Numbered from the stretch's first letter, positions 13,246 to 61,210 are shown. The stretch: 64,000 nucleotides of DNA from an uncultured Chloroflexia bacterium (GCA_963819655.1 CAWFXA010000001.1:448001-512000), one strand, 5' to 3'. Program-made: numbers and translations. The notes: a model not told the origin generated them from the sequence alone.

Positions 13246-14774
13246 GCGCTCCCGGCACGACGATCCGTCCCGCGGGTCCGCCCCCAGCTCGACGCGCCCC
13301 GGCCGACCGCTCCGCGGTGGCGATGGCGCTGCTCATCGTCATGGGCTCGCTGGCCGCAGGGATCCTCGCGGCGGACGCGCCGCTACTGACGGTCGCGGGC
13401 GCCAGCGCGCTGCTGCTCGGGATCGCCATCGTCCTGCGACCGGACGTCGCGACGCTGACGACCATCGCGATCCTCTACACGAATGCGGCTGTGGTCGCCG
13501 TCCGGTTCCACGGCGTCCCTCTGTTCGTCGGGGCATTCGTGCCGGCCCTGCTCGTCGTGCCGCTGGCCCGCGATCTCGTCGTCCGTCGGCTGCCCGTCGT
13601 GGCGCCCCCGATGCTGGGCTGGATGGTCGTACTGCTGTTCATCCACGTGATCTCGGCGCTGTTCTCGAGCGACACCGTCGTGTCGTGGGATGCCGTCGTC
13701 ATCTTCGTCGTCGAGGGGTTCGGCCTGTATTTCCTGCTCATCAACGTCATCAGGACGCCGGAGATGCTGCGCTCGGTGACCTGGGTCCTCCTGATATCGG
13801 GCGCCCTGGTCAGCTTGTTGGCGATCCACCAGGTCGTGACGGAGAACTACGACAGCAACTATCTCGGTTTCGCACAGGCGGACTCGGCGATCCGCACAGG
13901 CGCCACCACGCTCGCCGGCGACGTCCTCCAACCCCGGATGGCCGGCCCGATCGGTGAGACGAACCGTTTCGCCCAGGTGATGCTCATGCTGGTGCCGTTG
14001 GGCCTCTTCCGCGCGATCGGTGAACGATCGACGTCGCTGCGGGTCATCGCCGGACTCATGACGCTGGCGATCACGCTCGGCGTCGTGCTGTCGTTCTCAC
14101 GGGGTGGGGCGGTGGGGCTGGCGGCGCTCGTGCTGGCGCTCATGGTGCTCAGGCTCGTCCGGGTGCGGCATGTGCTGGTGCTCGTGGTCGTGCTCGGACT
14201 CATCCTCGTGGCCCTTCCGCAGTACGCGAACCGGCTGACCTCCCTCGCCGACCAGGGCGGCTTCGGTGGCAGCACGTCGTCGGCAGTCACCGACACGTCG
14301 TTGCTCAGCCGCGCGACGGAGACGCTGGCGGCCGCGCTCGTGATCGTCGATCACCCCGTGCTCGGGGTCGGCCCCGACATGTTCCCCGTCTACTACGAGG
14401 AGTACGCCCAGGTCGTCGGGATCCTCATCCGGAACGATGCGGCCCGGGAGGCGCACAACCTCTATCTCGGCATCGGGGCCGAGCTGGGCATACCCGGGCT
14501 CATCGTGTTCCTCATCATCGCGGTGCTCACCATCCGGATGATCCTGGCCGCGCGACGCGCGAGCCTCATTCGACGCCCCGACCTCGAGCGCCTGACCACG
14601 CCGTATCTCCTTGCGCTGCTCACCTATTACGTGACGGGCCTGTTCCTGCACCTTTCCTTCGCCCGGTACTACTGGCTGATGCTGGCGGTGGCCGGTGCCG
14701 CGGCGATCATCACGCTCCGTGAGACCGCCGCGGACGAGGCCTCCGATCAGGGTGCCGTCAGCCAGTCCGTGTAG
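13242..14774 (+). CDS. O-antigen ligase / Wzy polymerase family
   Basis: Many TM helices; SFSRGG, HPVLGVG and AHNLYL...AELGIPG motifs. Confidence 0.87.
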   Translation: MSAPGTTIRPAGPPPARRAPADRSAVAMALLIVMGSLAAGILAADAPLLTVAGASALLLGIAIVLRPDVATLTTIAILYTNAAVVAVRFHGVPLFVGAFVPALLVVPLARDLVVRRLPVVAPPMLGWMVVLLFIHVISALFSSDTVVSWDAVVIFVVEGFGLYFLLINVIRTPEMLRSVTWVLLISGALVSLLAIHQVVTENYDSNYLGFAQADSAIRTGATTLAGDVLQPRMAGPIGETNRFAQVMLMLVPLGLFRAIGERSTSLRVIAGLMTLAITLGVVLSFSRGGAVGLAALVLALMVLRLVRVRHVLVLVVVLGLILVALPQYANRLTSLADQGGFGGSTSSAVTDTSLLSRATETLAAALVIVDHPVLGVGPDMFPVYYEEYAQVVGILIRNDAAREAHNLYLGIGAELGIPGLIVFLIIAVLTIRMILAARRASLIRRPDLERLTTPYLLALLTYYVTGLFLHLSFARYYWLMLAVAGAAAIITLRETAADEASDQGAVSQSV

Positions 14775-16561
14775 CCGAAGTTCTTGCCCGTCCGCGCGGG
14801 GGCGGGTCCGCGATACGCGGTGCCGTAGCGCCGGTCGATCAGCCAGGGTTGCCACTCGTCGTCGCCCTCGGCCACCCAGCCGGCACGTCCGTACAGGAAC
14901 CGGGTCGCGCGCAGCAGGGCGCGGTCCGACCAGTTCCAGGCGTCGTAGCCGGCAACGCGAAGCAGCTCTGCCTGGAGCACGGCACCCTGGAGGCCTTCCC
15001 AGGCGTACCCGGTCGGAGCCGGCGGCCAGGCGAACGTTCCGCCCCGCCGCATCTCCTCCGGCAAGGCGCCGCCGATGTCGATCCCGTTCTTCGTGCAGCC
15101 GGTCGGGTTGATGCCCACGGGCTTCGTGGGATCGCACTGCCAGGACAGATCGCCGTAGATGAAGCCGGCGTACGCGGCCCGGTCCCCGAGATAGCCGCGG
15201 AACACCTGGGCGGTCCGGGCCATCTCGGCCGAGTCGCCGAGGTACGCGGCGATCGCGGCACGCGCCGCCCCGGCGTGGGTGCCCCAGTTGTTCGGTCGTC
15301 GCTCATGCGTCTGACGCAGGGTCATGCCGTCGAGCGTCGTCGAGAGCAGTGCCCGGAGCCATGGCCGGAACGCCGCCGTATCGAACGCCGGGTCCAGCGT
15401 CCGGAGTGAGATCAGGTCGGCGGCGATCACATAGGCGGGGAGGTTGCGGCCCAATGCCAGGGTGCGGCCGCCGGATTCGGTGCCGAGCGCGGATCTCAGG
15501 CCGGCCAGCACGCTGGTGCGGTAGCTCGCGACGCCCGTCCGGGCATAGACAAGTGCCTTGGCGAGCACCACCTGGTCGGTGTTGTCGTCCTGGTTCGAGA
15601 TGTTCGGGGCCCCGAGCGCTGAGTCGGCACGGGCCTGCAGAGCTGTCCAGGCGGGACCGGAGGTCGGCAGGCGCCCGATCTCGGACGCCGACACGAGGAT
15701 GCCGCTCCCCGGCGCGACGACGAGCGGGCCCGACGGCGCGGTCGGCGTCGGCGATGGCGTAGGCGTCGGCGTCGGCACGGCGGTCGGCGTCGGCGTGGGG
15801 GTCGGGGTCGGCGACGCGGTCGGAGTCGCGGTCGCGGTCGGGGTGGGAGTCGGCGAGGCCGTCGGGGTCGGCGAGGCAGTCGGGGTCGGAGTCGCCGCCG
15901 CGGCAGGTGTCGGAGTCGCCGTCGGGGCGGCCGTCGGGGTCGCCGTCGGTGCCGGCGTCGGGCTGGCGGTCGGGGCCGCAGTCGGGGCAGCCGTCGGCAC
16001 TGGAGTCGCCGTCGGAGCCGCTGTCGGTGGCGCCGTCGGCGCAGGGGTCGGAGTGGGGACGGGCGTAACGCGTGGTTTCGCGCGTGGTGTCGCGACCGGC
16101 GTCGGCGCCGGGGTCGGATCCGGCTTCTTGGCCGGGGCGACGATCTCGACGGCCAGCAACCCGCGTTCGACACCCTGGTCGTCGACTGCCCGCAGCTCAT
16201 GCACACCGCGCTCGAGCGTCGGTGGCAGGCGAACCTTCACCGAGAACCGGCCTTTGGCGTTGGTGCGATAGGCGACCAGCTCCGTCCCGTCGGGCCACAC
16301 CAGGAGTCCCGTCTCAGCGCGGTCGAACCCGGTGCCGACGATGACGATGCGCTGACCCGGCGTCGGCGCGTCGGGCGTCACCGCCAGGGTCGGCGTCGCC
16401 GCGGCCGTCATCACGAACGGAAGGATGAGCGCAGGGATCAGCAGGATGATCGGCAGGGTCGCCAGGATGTCGCGATGCTTCGACCACCGGGACGGGGGCG
16501 GTGGTGGCTCCGGGTGCGAGAAGACCCAGTCCTTGCGATCGGCGATCCTGATGTTCCGCAC
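14747..16561 (-). CDS. Secreted or anchored alginate-lyase-like protein (paralog 1) with an Ig-like domain and Pro/Thr/Ala linker
   Basis: GGAGG RBS before the GTG; TM/signal segment; PT-rich linker; catalytic domain with NNWG and a C-terminal FGYTDWL shared with two neighbouring genes. Confidence 0.6.
   Translation of the reverse strand: MRNIRIADRKDWVFSHPEPPPPPSRWSKHRDILATLPIILLIPALILPFVMTAAATPTLAVTPDAPTPGQRIVIVGTGFDRAETGLLVWPDGTELVAYRTNAKGRFSVKVRLPPTLERGVHELRAVDDQGVERGLLAVEIVAPAKKPDPTPAPTPVATPRAKPRVTPVPTPTPAPTAPPTAAPTATPVPTAAPTAAPTASPTPAPTATPTAAPTATPTPAAAATPTPTASPTPTASPTPTPTATATPTASPTPTPTPTPTAVPTPTPTPSPTPTAPSGPLVVAPGSGILVSASEIGRLPTSGPAWTALQARADSALGAPNISNQDDNTDQVVLAKALVYARTGVASYRTSVLAGLRSALGTESGGRTLALGRNLPAYVIAADLISLRTLDPAFDTAAFRPWLRALLSTTLDGMTLRQTHERRPNNWGTHAGAARAAIAAYLGDSAEMARTAQVFRGYLGDRAAYAGFIYGDLSWQCDPTKPVGINPTGCTKNGIDIGGALPEEMRRGGTFAWPPAPTGYAWEGLQGAVLQAELLRVAGYDAWNWSDRALLRATRFLYGRAGWVAEGDDEWQPWLIDRRYGTAYRGPAPARTGKNFGYTDWLTAP
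15740..16125 (-). repeat. Low-complexity PT/PTA coding linker
   Basis: Degenerate 6-12 bp repeats encoding PTATP/PTPTP. Confidence 0.85.
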
Positions 16562-16653
16562 GACGTCCTCCCTGCTCCGCGACTGCGTAGGCGGGGAGCG
16601 TTGGACGCCAGCGCGACCAGGGAACGGGTCAGCGTCCCAAGGCGCGCTGCGAC

Positions 16654-16730
16654 TTCGGCAACCCGGCTACCTGGGATCCAGGCCCGTGGCTTTGCGGCCC
16701 CGCCTCGCGACGGGTGTGCCTGTTCGGTAT
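16654..16730 (-). ncRNA. c-di-GMP-I (GEMM) riboswitch upstream of lyase paralog 1
   Basis: Reverse complement reads GGCACACCCGTC-GCGA-GGCGGGGCCGCAAAGCCACGGGCCT...GGTAGCCGGGTTGCCGAA, with a GNRA-capped P2, GCAAAGC junction, P3 and 3' GGTTGCCG; about 90 nt before the start codon. Confidence 0.88.
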
Positions 16731-53333: not shown

Positions 53334-53521
53334 GGGTCCTCCGAGGCGGCCGATGGGGTGGTGCCGGGGGAGGCGCAAGGGTATCACCGGGCCCTTTCCG
53401 GGCCACAGCGGTTCGCCGTCACGGACGGCGATCGGGACCTTCGTACGGGTGACCATCGAGGGTCCGACGCGGTACAGATATGTCAGCGGGGGGACGTTCC
53501 ATGGGGGAACTTGGCGAAAGC

Positions 53522-55147
53522 ATGTCCGCACGACCGACGACGACGATCTCACGATCGTCGGCACGAGCGATCCGCCGCCTCACGACCGCCGCCTTCGCAT
53601 CGGAGGTCCTGCTTGCCGGGATCGCCGTCGGGGCATCGGTCGCCCTCGCCGTCCGTGCCTTCGACCCGCGGCAATCGGTCGTCGATCCTGTCGTCGTCAT
53701 CGGCGCGGCCGCGGCGACAGTCGCGGTCCTCGTCCTCGGCGGACTCGCCTTCGCGACTGCCCGCATCCGTCGCCACGCGGCCGTGCTCGATTCGGAGCGG
53801 ACCGATCTGCGCGAGGCCTACGACCGAGCTCGGCTCGATTCGCTGCGTGACGGCCTGACCGGCCTCGGCAACCATCGAGCGTTCCAGGAGGAGCTCGACG
53901 CCCAGGTGGCAGCGGCCCGGGACGACGAGTCGCCACTGGCCCTGCTGATCATCGATGTCGACGATCTCAAGAAGATCAACGATCGCAAGGGTCATGCAGC
54001 CGGCGATGAGTTGCTGCGAACGGTCGCCCAGGTCATGCGGGCGAACCTCCGACGGTCGGACCGTGCCTACCGGCTCGGCGGCGACGAATTCGCCCTGTTG
54101 CTGCCCGGCTGCGAGATCGACGACGCGGGGATCATCGCCAACCACCTGCTGGCCGCGACGCTCAGCGGGCACCACGGCCGCATCGGCGCGTTCTCGGTGA
54201 CGATCGGGATCTCCGCGTTCCCGGCTCCGAGTGCCGATCGACAGCAGCTGCTCCACCACGCCGACGCCGCCATGTACTCGGGGAAGCGGCACGGCCGGAC
54301 CAAGGTCGAACGGTTCGATCCACAGCGACACGGCATCGCCGACGACCCCAGGACACTCGCGCAGCTGGTCGCGTCGGTGGAGCGGGTGACCTCGAACGGC
54401 CAGTTACGGGCCGTCTACCAGCCGATCTTCTCGTTGCGGACCGGCGAAGTCAGCGGGTTCGAGGGCCTCGTCCGGCTCGGCCCCGACGCGGAGTTCGACG
54501 AACCGACCGCGCTCTTCGTCGCGGCCGAGGCGACCAGCCGGACGATCGAGCTCGATGTGGTGTGTGCGCAGACCGTCCTCGCCGGTGCGCGGGACCTCCA
54601 GCCCAACCAGTACCTGTCGATCAATCTCTCACCGCGGACACTGGAGTCCGACGCGTTCAGTCCGCTCGAAGTGGTCGCCCTCGCGCGACGACACGGCGTA
54701 CCCCCGGAGCAGCTCGTCATCGAGCTCACCGAACGCGAGGCGGTGGAGGATCTCGAAAGCCTCCGTGCCGCCGTCGCGACCCTGCGCCGCCAGGGCGTGC
54801 GCATCGCGCTCGACGACATCGGGGCGGGTAACGCCGGTCTGCGCCTGCTGAGCGAGGTCGATTTCGACATCATGAAGATCGACCTGTCGCTGGTTCGGGC
54901 AGGCGCCACGCACGAGCCGTCGGAGGCGGTCCTGCGCGCACTGGGCAGTTTCGCCCGCCAGCGCGGTCACCAGATCGTCGCGGAAGGGATCGAGACGCCC
55001 GATCTGCTCGAGGCGGTGTTGGAGCTCCAGTACGACGCTGGTCAGGGATACCTGTTCGGGCGGCCGGCCTCGACGATGGCGATGACCAATCTCAAGCTGG
55101 TGGATCTGATCACCGGCGCCGGCCGCTCCGAGGATCCAGCCGCCTGA
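53522..55147 (+). CDS. Two-TM GGDEF-EAL protein
   Basis: DGLTGLGN, RRSD..RLGGDEF, YQPIF, EGL, DDIGAG and VAEGIET motifs; start uncertain (53480-53522). Confidence 0.9.
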   Translation: MSARPTTTISRSSARAIRRLTTAAFASEVLLAGIAVGASVALAVRAFDPRQSVVDPVVVIGAAAATVAVLVLGGLAFATARIRRHAAVLDSERTDLREAYDRARLDSLRDGLTGLGNHRAFQEELDAQVAAARDDESPLALLIIDVDDLKKINDRKGHAAGDELLRTVAQVMRANLRRSDRAYRLGGDEFALLLPGCEIDDAGIIANHLLAATLSGHHGRIGAFSVTIGISAFPAPSADRQQLLHHADAAMYSGKRHGRTKVERFDPQRHGIADDPRTLAQLVASVERVTSNGQLRAVYQPIFSLRTGEVSGFEGLVRLGPDAEFDEPTALFVAAEATSRTIELDVVCAQTVLAGARDLQPNQYLSINLSPRTLESDAFSPLEVVALARRHGVPPEQLVIELTEREAVEDLESLRAAVATLRRQGVRIALDDIGAGNAGLRLLSEVDFDIMKIDLSLVRAGATHEPSEAVLRALGSFARQRGHQIVAEGIETPDLLEAVLELQYDAGQGYLFGRPASTMAMTNLKLVDLITGAGRSEDPAA

Positions 55148-56608: not shown

Positions 56609-59297
56609 TTGCCGAGTTTCAACAGGGGCATCCGCAGCCATCGAGAGCCACAGGCAGGCACATCCGCTGACGCTCGCTCGCTCAGCACTGTGCCGCTGCG
56701 GCATGGTCTCGTCGCATCCGCGGAACGGATCCCCACGCACGTCCGCGTCTGGGCCCTGACCGCCTTCCTGGCGGCGCTGGCCGTCGTCGGTTACGCGGTC
56801 CTGCTGGTCGATCGTCCGGGCCGCGAGGTGCCGATCGCCATCCCGTGGCCGGTGATCGCATTCGGGTTCCTCGTCGCCGAGCTCAAGGTGGTGCAGGTCC
56901 ATTTCCGCCGCGAGACGCACGCGTTCTCGCTGAGCGAGTTCCCGGCGGTCATCGGCATGTTCTTCCTGCCGCCCGCGGAGTACCTCCTGGCTGTCCTCGT
57001 CGGATCGGCAGCCGCCTTCGTGCTCACCGGCTCGCGCCCCGTCAAGCTCGCGTTCAACCTCGCGAACTACGGGCTGATCGCGGTCATCTCGATGGCGATC
57101 CTCCTGTCGATCGCATCGCCGACCGGTCCGCCCGGCATCCGCGAGTGGGCCGCGGCCTTCACCGCGACCACGTTCGCGACGGTCCTCAGCTCGATCACGA
57201 TCGCCCTCGTCATCACCCTCTCGGGCGGCGCACCGCAATTCCAGAAGCTGCCCGAGATGATCCAGTTCGGGAGCATGGTCGCGCTGGCGAACACGAGTCT
57301 CGCGCTGCTCGCCGTCACGATCCTGTGGCTCCAGCCCATCATGCTGTGGCTTCTCGTGCTCCCGCTCGTGATGATCTTCGTCGCCTACCAGGCGTACATC
57401 TCCGAACGCGAGAAGCACGAACGGCTCGAGCTGCTCTACGAGTCCTCGCGGATCCTGCAGCTGTCGCCGGAGATCGATTTCACGCTCGTGGCGCTTCTCA
57501 GCCACGCCCGCACGATGTTCCGGGCGGAGCTCGCCGAGGTCATCCTCTACCCGCGATCACCGGACGCCGAGGGCCTGTGGGCGCGGTCGTGGCACGACCG
57601 GGACCCCGAGGTCTCCAGCCCCACCAGCGACGCCCTCCAGGACTCGCTCCACGATCTCGTCCGATCGTCGACCGGGCCGTTCATGCACGAGACCCGCGAT
57701 CCGGACGGACGCGTGCGACGGCACATGGTCAGCGCGCTGCGCGGCGAGTCGGACATCATCGGCTCGATGGTCATCACCAATCGGTTGACGGAGGGGACCT
57801 CGTTCGGGGACGACGATCTCCGGTTGCTGGAGACCCTCGCCAACCAGACGGCGGTCGCCCTCGAGAACGGCCACCTGGAGCAGTCGCTGGCCGAGCTCTC
57901 TCGCCTCAAGGAGCAGCTCCGCCACCAGGCCTACCACGACCCGCTCACCGGTCTGCCGAACCGGACCCTCTTCCTCGAATCGGTGGGTGAGCGGATCGGT
58001 TCGACCGGCCCCGAGATGCCGGTCGTCATGTTCCTTGACCTCGATGACTTCAAAGTCGTCAACGACACCCTCGGTCACGAGGCGGGGGATCGGCTGCTGT
58101 GTGATGTGGCGGGCCGTCTGCGGACGACCCTGCGGTCCGGGGATATCGCCGCCAGGCTCGGCGGCGACGAGTTCGCGATCCTGCTCGACGACGACCCGGG
58201 TCTTGCCCGAGCCGAAGCGGTCGCCGACCGGATCATCGACGCGCTCCGCGCGACGTTCCCGCTCGAAGGGCAGGAGATCACGATCGGGGTCAGCATCGGC
58301 ATCGCCGCGGCCCGATCGGGCATCAGCGCGGACGAACTGCTGCGCAACGCGGATGTCGCCATGTACACGGCGAAGGCCACCGGCAAGAACAGGGTCTCGG
58401 TCTTCGAGCCGACCGTCCATGCCGCGATCGTCGCCCGCCACGAGCTGAGCGCCGAGCTGTCGCGCAGCCTCGGTCGCGGCGAGCTCCACGTCTTCTACCA
58501 GCCGATCGTGGAGTTGGCGACCCGTCGCGTGACCGGGGTCGAGGCATTGATCCGCTGGCAGCATCCGGTCCGCGGCCTGATCGGCCCGAGCGAGTTCGTG
58601 CACCTCGCCGAGGAGACGCGCCTGATCCGGCCGCTCGGTCGCTGGGTCCTGCTCGAGGCCTGCCGCCAGGCCGCCGACTGGGCCGCGGTCATCCCGGGCG
58701 GCGACGACCTGACGATGTCGGTCAACCTGTCCGCGCAACAGCTCCAGGAGCCCGACTTCGTCAACGACCTCCGCCAGATCATCGCCGACACCGGCATCCG
58801 CCCCCACCAGCTCGTCCTCGAGATGACCGAGACGGTCATGTTCCACGACACGCTGACGACCCTGTCCCGGCTTGCAGCCATCCGCGACCTGGGCGTGCGC
58901 ATCGCGATCGACGACTTCGGGACCGGCTACTCGTCGCTCGGCTACCTCCGCCGCTTCCGGGTCGACATCCTCAAGATCGCGCGCGACTTCATCGGACCGG
59001 CAGAGCGCGAAGAGGAGTGGGCGTTCGCGAGCGCGATCGTCGCGATCGGTCGATCACTCGGAGTGACGATGGTCGCCGAGGGCATCGAGGAGACCGGTCA
59101 GCTCGATCGGCTGCTCGCGCTGGGGTGCGAGCTTGGCCAGGGATACCTGTTCGCCCGCGCCAGCTCGGGCCGAGGACATCGGCGCGCTGCTCGGCGTCGA
59201 GCCGGCGGCGAGTCGCGCGACCGGGGAGCGGGCCGCCAAGGGCGGAACAGTGGCGTCGTCGGGCCGGCGACGGACCATGGCCATCGATCCGACCTAG
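56609..59297 (+). CDS. Polytopic membrane sensor - GAF - GGDEF - EAL protein; apparent frameshift near 59158, true stop probably TAG 59295-59297
   Basis: About 7-8 hydrophobic helices; GAF end F..DDLRLLETLANQ; HDPLTGLPNR, RLGGDEF, EALIRW, DDFGTGYSSL and GQGYLF motifs; shifted frame continues ARAEDIGALL. Start codon approximate. Confidence 0.88.
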
Positions 59298-59318
59298 GCC
59301 TGGGTTACCGAAGCCATC

Positions 59319-59915
59319 ATGTTCATCCTGTACGCGCTCGTGATCGGCGTCGGGGTCGGGCTCGCCCTCGGTGGGCGCCCCGCAGGGCTCGGCAGCCTGC
59401 GGTTCCGCTGGTCGGGCGTGATGCTCGCCGGGCTGCTCGTCCAGGTCGTGCTGTTCTCCGACGCGGTCGCGGGACGCATCGGCGCGCTCGGACCGCCGAT
59501 CTACGTGGCGTCGACCGTGTTGGTGCTCGCCGCAGTCGTCGCCAACCGCTCCATCCCGGGCATGGCCATCGTCGCGCTGGGCGCAGTGAGCAACCTTGCC
59601 GCGATCGTCGCCAACGGCGGGTACATGCCGGCGGCCCGATCCGCCCTGGACGCCCTCGGCAAGACCGATCCGACGACGTATTCCAACAGTGCGACCGTCG
59701 AGCATCCGGCCCTCGGGCCGCTGACGGACATCTTCGCGATGCCCTCGTGGCTGCCCTTCGCGAACGTGTTCAGCGTCGGCGATATCCTCATCGTCGCCGG
59801 TGTCGTGACGACGATCGTCCTGGCGATGCGGAGCCCCGCGCAGGACGGCGAAATGGGCAGGGGTGCCCCCGAGCAACTCCCCCATCCAGCCGACCTCGCC
59901 AGTACGGTCGAGTGA
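59319..59915 (+). CDS. DUF5317-like membrane protein, putative intramembrane peptidase
   Basis: LGGR...L.FRW, SNLAAIVANGGYMP, L.PLTDIF and NVFSVGDILI motifs recalled as DUF5317; about 5-6 TM helices. Confidence 0.8.
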   Translation: MFILYALVIGVGVGLALGGRPAGLGSLRFRWSGVMLAGLLVQVVLFSDAVAGRIGALGPPIYVASTVLVLAAVVANRSIPGMAIVALGAVSNLAAIVANGGYMPAARSALDALGKTDPTTYSNSATVEHPALGPLTDIFAMPSWLPFANVFSVGDILIVAGVVTTIVLAMRSPAQDGEMGRGAPEQLPHPADLASTVE

Positions 59916-59975
59916 CTGGTCCCGCGTCCTCGCCGGCCGCACCATCCCGAACGAGGGACGCTCGTCCCCCCGCTA

Positions 59976-60057
59976 ACCGGATCGTCCAGGGCAAACCCGT
60001 CGCGAGGCGGGGACGCAAAGCCAGGGATCTCTCATTCGAGACCGCCCGGCTGCCGGT
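59976..60057 (+). ncRNA. c-di-GMP-I (GEMM) riboswitch
   Basis: GGGCAAACCCGTC-GCGA-GGCGGGGACGCAAAGCCAGGGATCTC...GAGACCGCCCGGCTGCCGG matches the canonical GEMM-I pattern. Confidence 0.92.
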
Positions 60058-60095
60058 CCTGCGAGCGTCGACCCTTCGCTGAAGAAGGAGAACGC

Positions 60096-60185
60096 GTGAA
60101 GGCGAACCTGGCGCGCTTCACCTGGGCACTCACGCTCCTGGCCAGCATGGCCCTGACCGTGGGAGCCGGGATCCGGTGGAACTGA
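60096..60185 (+). CDS. 29-aa peptide MKANLARFTWALTLLASMALTVGAGIRWN (not in ORF track)
   Basis: AAGGAG at 60085-60090, 5 nt before the GTG; directly after the riboswitch; basic N-terminus plus hydrophobic core. Confidence 0.8.
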   Translation: MKANLARFTWALTLLASMALTVGAGIRWN

Positions 60186-60187
60186 CC

Positions 60188-60283
60188 GTGGCGGCATACG
60201 TCGCGGCCTCGACCGACCGGGTCCAGTCGACGACCGGGTACCACCCCGAGATCGTCATCGAGTCCGGGCACCGCTGGGGCTGA
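60188..60283 (+). CDS. 31-aa peptide MAAYVAASTDRVQSTTGYHPEIVIESGHRWG (not in ORF track)
   Basis: GTG starts 2 nt after the stop of peptide 1; GC3-rich codons; shares the terminal G-x-R-W-x motif. Confidence 0.6.
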   Translation: MAAYVAASTDRVQSTTGYHPEIVIESGHRWG

Positions 60284-60427
60284 GTTCCAGCGAGCCGATC
60301 TCATCGAGGGGCGCCGGCCACGCCGGCGCCCCTCGTACGTGTCCGGGATGGGCGCCTGGCCTCCGGAACGGGGATCCTGGACCCACTCGTGCATGGTGCT
60401 ACTCTTGTGTGCATGGGAGGACCGCGC

Positions 60428-61210
60428 ATGACGGTTCCCTGGGTGGATGCCCCCCCGGAAGACGCTCGCCGCGCTCTTGTGCTCCATGATCGCCCAGCGG
60501 TCGTGGACCTCATCGAGCTGACGCTGAACCACGGTCTCTTCGTGGTCCGAGCCGCGCAGACCCTGACCGAGGCGATGGATCTCCTCGCGACGTGGCACCC
60601 GCATATGGCCGTCGTCGACATGGATCACGACGAGAGTGCCGACTTGCTCAAGCGCCTGGGCGCCTCCAATAACCTGGCGGCGAGCGGCACGCCCGTCCTC
60701 GGCCTCACGCGCCGCGGCGATCTGCGGAACAAGCTCAAGGCATTCGACCTCGGGGTGGACGACATCCTGGCGATGCCGTTCTCACCGGAAGAGTTGTTGG
60801 CCCGGTCGATCGTGATCACGCGTCGGGCTTCGGGGGTCGACCGACCGATCGTCCCCACGATCAGACTCGGCGAGATGGAGATCGACATCGTCAATCGTGT
60901 GGTCCGTGCGGGCTCTTCCGTGATCCACCTGAGCTCCATCGAGCAGAGCCTGTTGTACCTGCTTGCCAGCCGGGGTGGTCGGGTGATCTCCCGGGACGAG
61001 ATCCTGGACGGCGTCTGGGGCACCGACTTCGTGGCCGAGAGCAACATCGTCGATCGCCATATCCGGAGCCTGCGGATCAAGCTGCAGAACGACTACCGCC
61101 ACCCGCGCTTCATCGAGACGGTCCCGGGCAAGGGCTATCGGTTCATCCCGACATTCTCGAACCAGGGCTGGGACGGTGGGTCCGGCGCGGCCGAGGATCC
61201 GCCCGACTGA
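60428..61210 (+). CDS. OmpR-family response regulator (no adjacent kinase)
   Basis: GGAGG RBS; VVDMD, GVDD...PFSPEELLAR, VDRHIRSLR.KL and IETVPGKGYRF motifs. Confidence 0.9.
   Translation: MTVPWVDAPPEDARRALVLHDRPAVVDLIELTLNHGLFVVRAAQTLTEAMDLLATWHPHMAVVDMDHDESADLLKRLGASNNLAASGTPVLGLTRRGDLRNKLKAFDLGVDDILAMPFSPEELLARSIVITRRASGVDRPIVPTIRLGEMEIDIVNRVVRAGSSVIHLSSIEQSLLYLLASRGGRVISRDEILDGVWGTDFVAESNIVDRHIRSLRIKLQNDYRHPRFIETVPGKGYRFIPTFSNQGWDGGSGAAEDPPD

Follow-up and report, generated by a model that had tools for sequence, protein, structure and literature searches.

A 64,000-nucleotide stretch of DNA from an uncultured Chloroflexia bacterium (GCA_963819655.1, CAWFXA010000001.1:448001-512000; here called the window) carries near its 3' end a co-oriented, plus-strand module built around the second messenger cyclic di-GMP (c-di-GMP). 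A gene for a polytopic c-di-GMP enzyme, with a MASE9-like membrane domain followed by GAF, GGDEF and EAL domains, is succeeded by a gene for a DUF5317 membrane protein, a c-di-GMP-I-type riboswitch aptamer and two very small genes, pepA and pepB. All four parts, counting the two small genes as one, are confirmed as real and as joined by conserved synteny, and their functional coupling is well supported. The module may be a membrane c-di-GMP control device in which riboswitch-gated peptides regulate a MASE9/DUF5317 complex, a reading to which a probability of about 0.45 is attached. The window has a G+C content of 69%; its source genome, 3.49 Mb in 3 contigs, is that of a soil Chloroflexota bacterium, and close relatives of the window's proteins and loci are named Chloroflexota or Candidatus Limnocylindrales in the sources. 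The features are as follows.

56609..59297, + strand: membrane c-di-GMP enzyme with MASE9-like polytopic N-terminus, GAF, GGDEF and EAL (Pfam, motifs, profile comparison)
59319..59915, + strand: DUF5317 membrane protein, 198 amino acids (PF17248, 3.2e-26)
59981..60058, + strand: c-di-GMP-I-type riboswitch aptamer (RF03167, 65.8 bits; RF01051, 60 bits; same place in relatives)
60096..60185, + strand: pepA, 29-amino-acid hydrophobic peptide VKANLARFTWALTLLASMALTVGAGIRWN (Shine-Dalgarno (SD) sequence, conservation, coding signature, RNA-library contigs)
60176..60283, + strand: pepB, 35 amino acids, from a GTG overlapping the pepA end (conservation, coding signature of the hydrophobic form, RNA-library contig)
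60306..60336, + strand: terminator-like hairpin with a 14-bp stem (folding energy)

A sequence-only reading of this DNA had singled out the same four parts as one unit tied to c-di-GMP. Pfam, Rfam, open reading frame (ORF) and codon analysis find all of them, at or near where it had placed them, and the conserved neighbourhoods of DUF5317 relatives bear out the unit. The expected recurrence of DUF5317, small ORFs, riboswitch and GGDEF-EAL gene together is observed within this class of Chloroflexota. Among 14 sources from the genus, 11 carry the riboswitch-peptide cassette (15 cassettes in all), and the other 3, fetched around other riboswitch hits, are without these genes. DUF5317 lies upstream on the same strand in all 11 cassette-bearing loci. 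A long membrane GGDEF-EAL gene is present in 9 of them, five times before DUF5317 and four times after the peptides, so the linkage survives rearrangement; a divergent arrangement of the module occurs in G432. The riboswitch-pepA cassette, with or without pepB, is also found tandem-duplicated about 500 bp apart, each copy with its own aptamer (G008:C27, G010:C16, G016:C2 and G012:C12; L119, L142 and L155).

A wider set comprises 80 species-level loci of DUF5317 relatives at 53-91% identity, found only in Chloroflexota, in which each central DUF5317 was assigned to a type according to which of the three paralogues in the window's genome it matched best; these genomes are related, and the counts are not independent events. 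An aptamer lies downstream in 57 of the 68 window-type loci (54 by pattern, with L118, L123 and L129 added by cmscan, which finds none in nine bare loci), and a long GGDEF-EAL gene lies upstream in 49. None of the 12 paralogue-type loci has either the aptamer or the long GGDEF-EAL gene. A PepA profile search of 401 Chloroflexota genomes matched 10; the convincing matches fall in 5 of 24 genomes of the window's family (its own included) and in 2 of 16 of a second family of the class, each about 2 kb or less from a DUF5317 gene. The module recurs in that second family (L171, L172), and a further PepA copy lies on a contig of 3.4 kb that has no DUF5317. An OmpR-type response regulator gene (60429-61210, +) starts about 90 nt past the hairpin that follows the cassette in the window; it probably lies outside the module, since its position is kept in the two closest relatives only.

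The pairing of DUF5317 with a membrane c-di-GMP enzyme, including the HD-GYP partners that had been predicted, extends across the phylum. DUF5317 occurs in 117 of the 401 sampled Chloroflexota genomes, from which 60 loci of other families were taken in score order, the class's own families and one unpublished genome being left out. An HD-GYP or GGDEF domain is encoded in 31 of these 60 loci (each about 10.4 kb, some 5 kb each way), in 27 of the 31 on the same strand and within 2.6 kb, against an expectation of about 1.4% per locus (182 HD_5 matches in 134.7 Mb from 41 genomes, 2 of the matches coming from the unpublished G078). A pattern scan of 61 loci for small hydrophobic ORFs ending in [AGS][AG]x[KR]W gives five matches, four of them PepA-like and beside DUF5317; their ends, LGAGTKWG, VGAGQKWF, IGGGQKWL and GGAGFRW, come from three families outside the class. 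PepA-like ORFs also stand beside a MASE9-HD-GYP gene in two of these three families. One precedes a MASE9-like HD-GYP gene in G430, where no riboswitch was found; two flank the MASE9-HD-GYP-DUF5317 pair at L210; another lies 650 nt upstream of DUF5317 at L194. The PepA-like ORFs of all three families are without a riboswitch, which indicates that the peptide-DUF5317 association predates the riboswitch, yet is sporadic.

DUF5317 is also found fused to other domains. A true in-frame fusion of DUF5317 to a MASE9-like transmembrane (TM) domain, GAF, GGDEF and EAL (P0131, 1053 amino acids) has 11 member sequences. The apparent EAL-DUF5317 fusions P0122, P0129 and P0133 were rejected because each of these gene calls reads through a frameshifted EAL gene; P0133 ends in translated riboswitch sequence, and such entries may mislead surveys of domain architecture. 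The protein database holds many fusions of DUF5317 to MFS transporters. In the window's own genome (G000:C2:601339-604080, L007), a 680-amino-acid DUF5317-MFS_3 ORF comes after an HD-GYP (HD_5) gene of the same orientation, and the order HD-GYP, MFS, DUF5317 recurs in 7 loci of another Chloroflexota family.

The two tiny ORFs of the sequence-only reading are both protein-coding by their substitution pattern and conserved in relatives. PepA carries basic residues close to its N-terminus, a single hydrophobic stretch long enough for a helix, and G-A-G-x-R/K-W at its C-terminal end, with no Cys, and the C-terminal motif G/S-G-x-R/K-W is common to PepA and PepB. PepA follows the same riboswitch subclass in genus relatives; across the 80 loci and the window, 59 aptamer matches were scanned, and at least 55 of the 57 that could be evaluated are followed by PepA, by reading of the list. 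In 54 distinct pepA genes (28-codon cores), pairwise differences number 8837, 5151 and 15292 at codon positions 1, 2 and 3, and this concentration at third positions marks PepA as more than a chance ORF. L5, G23, A24, G25 and W28 never change in the 54 cores, with 3 or 4 synonymous codons in use for each of G23, A24 and G25; alignment A5 (48 rows) has M1, L5, G23, A24, G25 and W28 invariant. Purifying selection at the amino-acid level runs along the whole helix, with small residues spaced at A16, A19, G23 and G25, a pattern more in keeping with helix packing than with a leader to be discarded. Codons 1-8 of pepA are almost invariant even at synonymous sites, which suggests an added constraint at the RNA level.

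PepB is present in roughly two thirds of the cassettes (39/57 by an automatic rule). Its commoner form is a hydrophobic peptide of 33 amino acids with its own ATG, ending in …ALV[LI]EAGQRW+ (example L106, MTRILKAQAFRVLMVLSALASSALVIEAGQRWK), for which codon-position differences are 920/377/1515; in one relative, L046, PepB is visibly a paralogue of PepA. The window's PepB, whose true start is uncertain, ends in ...EIVIESGHRWG, and the form of its clade is a hydrophilic derivative of the 33-amino-acid one that retains …V[IV]ESGHRWG. PepA and, ancestrally, PepB are predicted from their sequences to be single hydrophobic helices associated with the membrane. Contigs from two RNA-seq libraries (two studies) match 60006-60260 with 0-2 differences, although DNA may contaminate such libraries, and a 152-nt RNA-library contig spans 60109-60260 and is identical to the window there. 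In RNA run X15 the cassette is covered and the bins over the two upstream genes have no depth, a lack of cover that proves nothing.

The aptamer at 59981-60058 scores 65.8 bits against RF03167 (c-di-GMP-I-GGC, cut-off 59) and 60 bits against RF01051 (c-di-GMP-I, clan CL00126, cut-off 35), so that the c-di-GMP-I riboswitch of the earlier reading stands above the gathering scores of both families. By family membership, c-di-GMP is the presumed ligand. The cmscan alignment reads A in the window (CGCAAAG) where the RF03167 consensus has G (CGCGAAG), at the ligand-contacting position that presumably defines the GGC variant. The linker from aptamer to pepA is 37 nt long and carries AAGGAG six bases ahead of the GTG, and no terminator lies between aptamer and ORF. 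RNAalifold pairs CGUCCAGG at the aptamer's 5' side with CCUGGCG in pepA codons 4-6; all columns are invariant, and the pairing therefore shows no covariation. SD sequestration appears in the minimum free energy (MFE) fold of the window but does not hold generally: a mostly paired SD occurs in 16 of 56 cassettes, compared with 8 of 56 when linkers are shuffled. For the start codon the figure is 46 of 56 cassettes; however, the energy of the window's start-codon hairpin is unremarkable (z -1.36, 20 of 200 shuffles as good).

The hairpin at 60306-60336, 23 nt past the pepB stop, has a perfect 14-bp G+C-rich stem and a 3-nt loop, without a U tract; the folded 62-nt stretch 60284-60345, dominated by this stem, has an MFE of -37.1 kcal/mol (z -4.64, 1 of 200 shuffles as good). 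A scan for consensus promoters and terminators found none, and it missed this hairpin because there is no T run. About 20 nt before the aptamer lies a short hairpin (59945-59958), whose stem varies in sequence among relatives with its pairing kept, as judged by eye; the window's copy does not stand out in folding energy (z 0.76).

Other riboswitches of this type occur in the window and the genus. A second aptamer in the window (16653-16729, minus strand; RF03167, 64.6 bits) precedes, by about 90 nt, a 604-amino-acid ORF (14747-16561, minus strand) that combines a hydrophobic segment at the N-terminus with a stretch rich in Pro, Thr and Ala and an Alginate_lyase domain (3.4e-12). This ORF looks like a riboswitch-controlled secreted or surface polysaccharide lyase, and the same arrangement is found in L030 and L025. 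Genus relatives L008-L014, L017 and L018 carry another subclass of the same riboswitch, with the SD directly after the aptamer, ahead of an unrelated 35-amino-acid hydrophobic ORF ending in …AAAA-x-F-H-R or similar and with no DUF5317 or GGDEF gene within 1.5 kb. This subclass and its ORF may represent a second family of riboswitch-controlled micro-peptides.

The DUF5317 protein matches PF17248 at 3.2e-26 (92.6 bits, cut-off 25); all 45 aligned relatives also match the family, which has members in Thermotoga and Thermus too. In its AlphaFold2 model (mean pLDDT 93), four long helices lead into an extended loop or beta segment, at about residues 99-152, after which comes a fifth long helix. Nine residues, Q42, N76, P104, L135, D137, P142, S152, G154 and D155, are invariant in the 45 diverse members, and this set, with Q42, N76, D137 and D155 in it, looks like a putative active or binding site. 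Complex prediction for DUF5317 with PepA, run without controls, gives scores of 0.29 and 0.28 against a mark of 0.32 and speaks neither for nor against binding. No paper on DUF5317 by name was found in the literature searched.

The translation of 56609-59120 matches EAL (4.1e-64), GGDEF (3.8e-44) and GAF_3 (6e-09) in Pfam, preceded by about 290 hydrophobic residues, and its NCBIfam matches are confined to the GGDEF-EAL part. RLGGDEF, an RxxD site five residues before it, EAL and DDFGTGYSS are all legible, which confirms in the translation and by Pfam both the domains and the catalytic motifs first noticed in the sequence. Residues 1-304 have no direct match to the Pfam MASE9 model (PF20972), even at E 10. 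A profile of this TM domain, aligned with that of the TM domains of nine DUF5317-adjacent HD-GYP proteins, reaches an hhalign probability of 97.4% (E 1.2e-11, 178 columns); seven of the nine match Pfam MASE9, three of them above cut-off. A language-model feature search (Atlas) likens the enzyme to MASE9 clusters (0.92). Pairwise BLASTP between the window's TM domain and the HD-GYP protein of G430 is not significant, so the homology is visible to profiles only. On this profile comparison, the enzyme's membrane domain is assigned as a homologue of MASE9-type sensor domains.

The start of the enzyme gene is uncertain (TTG 56609 or GTG 56690). From TTG 56609 the frame has no stop before DUF5317 and continues through the DUF5317 gene as arginine-rich nonsense. 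The expected C-terminus (…AEDIGALL…MAIDPT; TAG 59295-59297) sits in the +1 frame, and alignment reveals an extra G at 59159 relative to all three closest relatives; a DNA contig of a 94%-identical relative also is without it. The break falls just past the EAL domain match, 46 codons ahead of the stop, and the extra G is either an assembly error or a real mutation. In a close relative, L079, the same gene is broken in frame at another place, and the different sites hint at assembly indels. The 21-bp spacing between enzyme gene and DUF5317 noted earlier holds for the shifted frame ending at TAG 59295-59297 and fails for the frame starting at 56609. A second, shorter GGDEF-EAL gene without GAF (53480-55147, +, 555 amino acids) lies two genes upstream of the enzyme, and its counterpart, 33-35% identical, adjoins the module in many relatives.

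In the mechanism proposed, the core would be a two-gene pair: a polytopic enzyme with a MASE9-type intramembrane sensor domain and a GAF-GGDEF-EAL output, and the membrane protein DUF5317 as its partner. In this class of Chloroflexota the pair would have acquired a c-di-GMP-I riboswitch that gates synthesis of PepA and PepB. The peptides would stay at the membrane and there regulate the MASE9/DUF5317 complex, either as subunits of it or as ligands bound within the membrane, so as to shift the balance between c-di-GMP synthesis and breakdown. The module would then form a feedback loop, because c-di-GMP itself would set peptide synthesis through the riboswitch. Such a membrane-resident role is preferred because conservation extends over the entire PepA helix with its spaced small residues, because the conserved set includes neither export nor receptor machinery, and because the MASE9 ligand has been proposed to bind in the membrane (bioRxiv 10.1101/2021.11.05.467447). 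The parts, the coding capacity of the peptides, their conservation and their linkage are matters of observation; that the peptides physically associate with the complex and alter enzyme activity is inferred, as are the riboswitch's ligand and sign.

Several points weigh against this mechanism. Binding of the peptides to DUF5317 or to the enzyme is putative, and the sign of the switch is not derivable from the folding analyses, in which predicted SD sequestration is no stronger than with shuffled linkers (mean P(unpaired) 0.38 versus 0.43). By the patterns used, a peptide ORF is detectable in 3 of 61 loci; with most DUF5317/MASE9-HD-GYP pairs lacking one, the peptides would be an accessory and not a required subunit. 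Two of the 11 genus loci, L045 and L048, have DUF5317 and peptides but no long GGDEF-EAL gene in the fetched span, and in the window itself the enzyme gene is frameshifted as assembled, without an intact reading frame. Evidence of pepA and pepB expression consists of RNA-library contigs, where DNA can be present. Finally, the window-clade PepB lost its helix and kept its motif, so the motif may matter and not membrane anchoring; this retention may suit a released epitope as well as a subunit.

It is unlikely, on balance, that PepA and PepB are instead output effectors of c-di-GMP, acting on another target or on the membrane as in Clostridioides difficile, with their adjacency reflecting a c-di-GMP island. 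The C. difficile CD1980.2 family offers a precedent, being described as multicopy small membrane proteins under class I c-di-GMP riboswitches with a downstream physiological role (PMC13724677). The second riboswitch subclass of the genus, whose unrelated 35-amino-acid hydrophobic peptide has neither DUF5317 nor a GGDEF gene closer than 1.5 kb, would also fit an effector role, as would the tandem-duplicated cassettes of some genomes and the terminator-like hairpin that closes the cassette. Against such a role stands the adjacency to DUF5317 in 11/11 genus loci and in all 7 class genomes with a PepA match, in three gene orders. In other families PepA-like ORFs still adjoin DUF5317 in the absence of a riboswitch, which shared regulation alone hardly explains.

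The CD1980.2 family is nonetheless the closest precedent for the module among the sources at hand. Its members are 58-amino-acid membrane-associated small proteins behind class I c-di-GMP riboswitches, reported in 2026, with no homologues outside C. difficile recorded there (PMC13724677). On that description, both groups are small hydrophobic proteins directly after a c-di-GMP-I aptamer, often multicopy, missed by annotation and without a recognisable domain. The module peptides, at 29-35 amino acids, are half the CD1980.2 size. Premature termination is reported for the CD1980.2 family (PMC13724677), whereas the module has no terminator between aptamer and ORF. Unlike the CD1980.2 proteins as described, the module forms a two-peptide cassette with a common C-terminal G/S-G-x-R/K-W and, as the chief difference, is fixed beside a c-di-GMP enzyme and DUF5317; its host is a Chloroflexota bacterium and, unlike C. 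difficile, not a spore former. The C. difficile work is the only comparable system among the matches listed in a literature search for c-di-GMP riboswitches with small proteins. The sequence-only statement that no characterised system resembles the module is therefore tempered by the riboswitch-controlled small membrane proteins of C. difficile (PMC13724677).

A bolder version of the membrane-resident role, in which PepA and PepB would be intramembrane ligands of the orphan MASE9 domain and DUF5317 their co-receptor or maturation enzyme, is rather improbable. It would yield a self-contained c-di-GMP switch or, if the x-R/K-W-x end were released, the first peptide cell-to-cell signal read directly as c-di-GMP. 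MASE9 was defined in bioRxiv 10.1101/2021.11.05.467447, which includes MASE9-HD-GYP proteins such as T. maritima TM1467, lists MASE9 with GGDEF-EAL and argues that the ligand binds within the membrane. These proteins, as described there, and the window's enzyme alike fuse a polytopic sensor domain to c-di-GMP turnover domains; a partnership with DUF5317 or a small peptide did not appear in the portion of that account available (bioRxiv 10.1101/2021.11.05.467447). The window's domain is too divergent for the Pfam MASE9 model and is linked to it by profile-profile comparison only.

Single-helix peptides of 30-50 amino acids that bind a larger membrane protein are familiar from MgrB-PhoQ, AcrZ-AcrB, KdpF and MgtS; the gene for such a peptide often lies next to that of its target or shares its regulation, and feedback can result. 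For PepA and PepB, such binding to a larger membrane protein would be a feature by analogy. We know of no peptide of this type that is under a riboswitch or targets a c-di-GMP enzyme.

The sequence-only reading had gone further, taking PepA and PepB as pro-peptides from which DUF5317, as an intramembrane peptidase, would release x-R/K-W-x for export and sensing outside the cell by the GGDEF-EAL membrane domain, an agr-like quorum-sensing logic with c-di-GMP as output. This account is quite unlikely. Known peptide signalling cassettes include agr, SHP/Rgg and the enterococcal pheromones cut from lipoprotein signal peptides, and the module shares with them very short hydrophobic precursors, an informative C-terminus and a polytopic membrane protein alongside. 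PepA has the format of a free signal peptide, with its most invariant block at the C-terminus and G-A-G just before the variable x-R/K-W-x. The best argument is that the shared C-terminal motif is kept where PepB is no longer hydrophobic. Conservation nevertheless spans the whole PepA helix and not the end alone, and a Glu at -3 in PepB misfits the small-residue rule of signal peptidase sites. Export, extracellular sensing and the agr likeness find no backing in the conserved set, which holds no histidine kinase, Opp system or ATP-binding cassette (ABC) exporter; unlike the known cassettes, the module also has no Rgg-type receptor and no Cys for a thiolactone, PepA included, and its output domain is GGDEF-EAL. 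No kinase domain of an agr-type receptor is present there either, and the OmpR-type regulator is kept in the two closest relatives only. Most DUF5317 genes, moreover, are without a nearby peptide ORF.

The proposed peptidase activity fares no better. DUF5317 and LspA (Peptidase_A8) are both small polytopic membrane proteins, and DUF5317 has an invariant Asp pair 18 positions apart with invariant Asn, Gln and Ser in or near helices. Conserved Asn and Asp precede the last helix, in the form FSVGD in DUF5317 and FNxAD in LspA. Among weak fold matches, the LspA structures 5dir_A and 6ryp_A have the highest sequence identities, and the window's DUF5317 has one sub-threshold Peptidase_A8 match (16.5 bits, cut-off 25, E 0.0099). 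The frequent DUF5317-MFS fusions are reminiscent of peptidase-exporter fusions. Against this, the Peptidase_A8 signal appears in 1 of 45 DUF5317 members at E ≤ 1, a profile search of PDB sequences returns nothing at E ≤ 10, and Foldseek of the model against the PDB returns nothing at E ≤ 0.001, with an LspA match at E 8.8. VIA-align places 5dir_A (Z 4.8, 19% over 94 residues) at rank 12 and 6ryp_A (Z 4.8, 16%) at rank 9, within helical-bundle noise. An hhalign comparison with the LspA profile gives a probability of 4.4% and no conserved Asp at the NxxDR catalytic position, so that LspA's first catalytic Asp motif is not conserved in that alignment, and the genome has a normal LspA elsewhere. 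With profile, Foldseek, hhalign and structure-alignment signals all at noise level, DUF5317 is not classed as a peptidase here, and its supposed role in peptide maturation finds no support in these comparisons.

It is very unlikely that the small ORFs are regulatory leaders whose act of translation controls downstream expression, for example of the GGDEF-EAL gene where it follows the peptides. In favour of this reading, 4 of 11 genus loci have the enzyme gene immediately after the cassette, the near-invariance of pepA codons 1-8 at synonymous sites points to RNA-level constraint, and pepA and pepB overlap in the window. Against it, synonymous sites vary freely from codon 9 onward while the amino acids are under selection through to the last codon, two ORFs that otherwise differ share one C-terminal motif, and in the window's gene order a strong hairpin follows with nothing conserved downstream, the response regulator being kept in the two closest relatives only.

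A membrane module with riboswitch-gated peptides would give candidate partners to two orphan membrane families, DUF5317 and MASE9, a domain still without an assigned ligand. That DUF5317 pairs with MASE9-type c-di-GMP enzymes throughout Chloroflexota is a separate finding, useful for annotation and for the choice of constructs. Predicted small membrane proteins under riboswitch control also occur outside C. difficile, from which a single 2026 study had described such proteins (PMC13724677). If the peptides do modulate the adjacent enzyme, the module would provide compact feedback running from messenger to RNA sensor to micro-peptide and back to the messenger's enzyme, a design that has not been described for c-di-GMP. 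Collectively, the findings suggest an undescribed feedback loop in bacterial second-messenger signalling.

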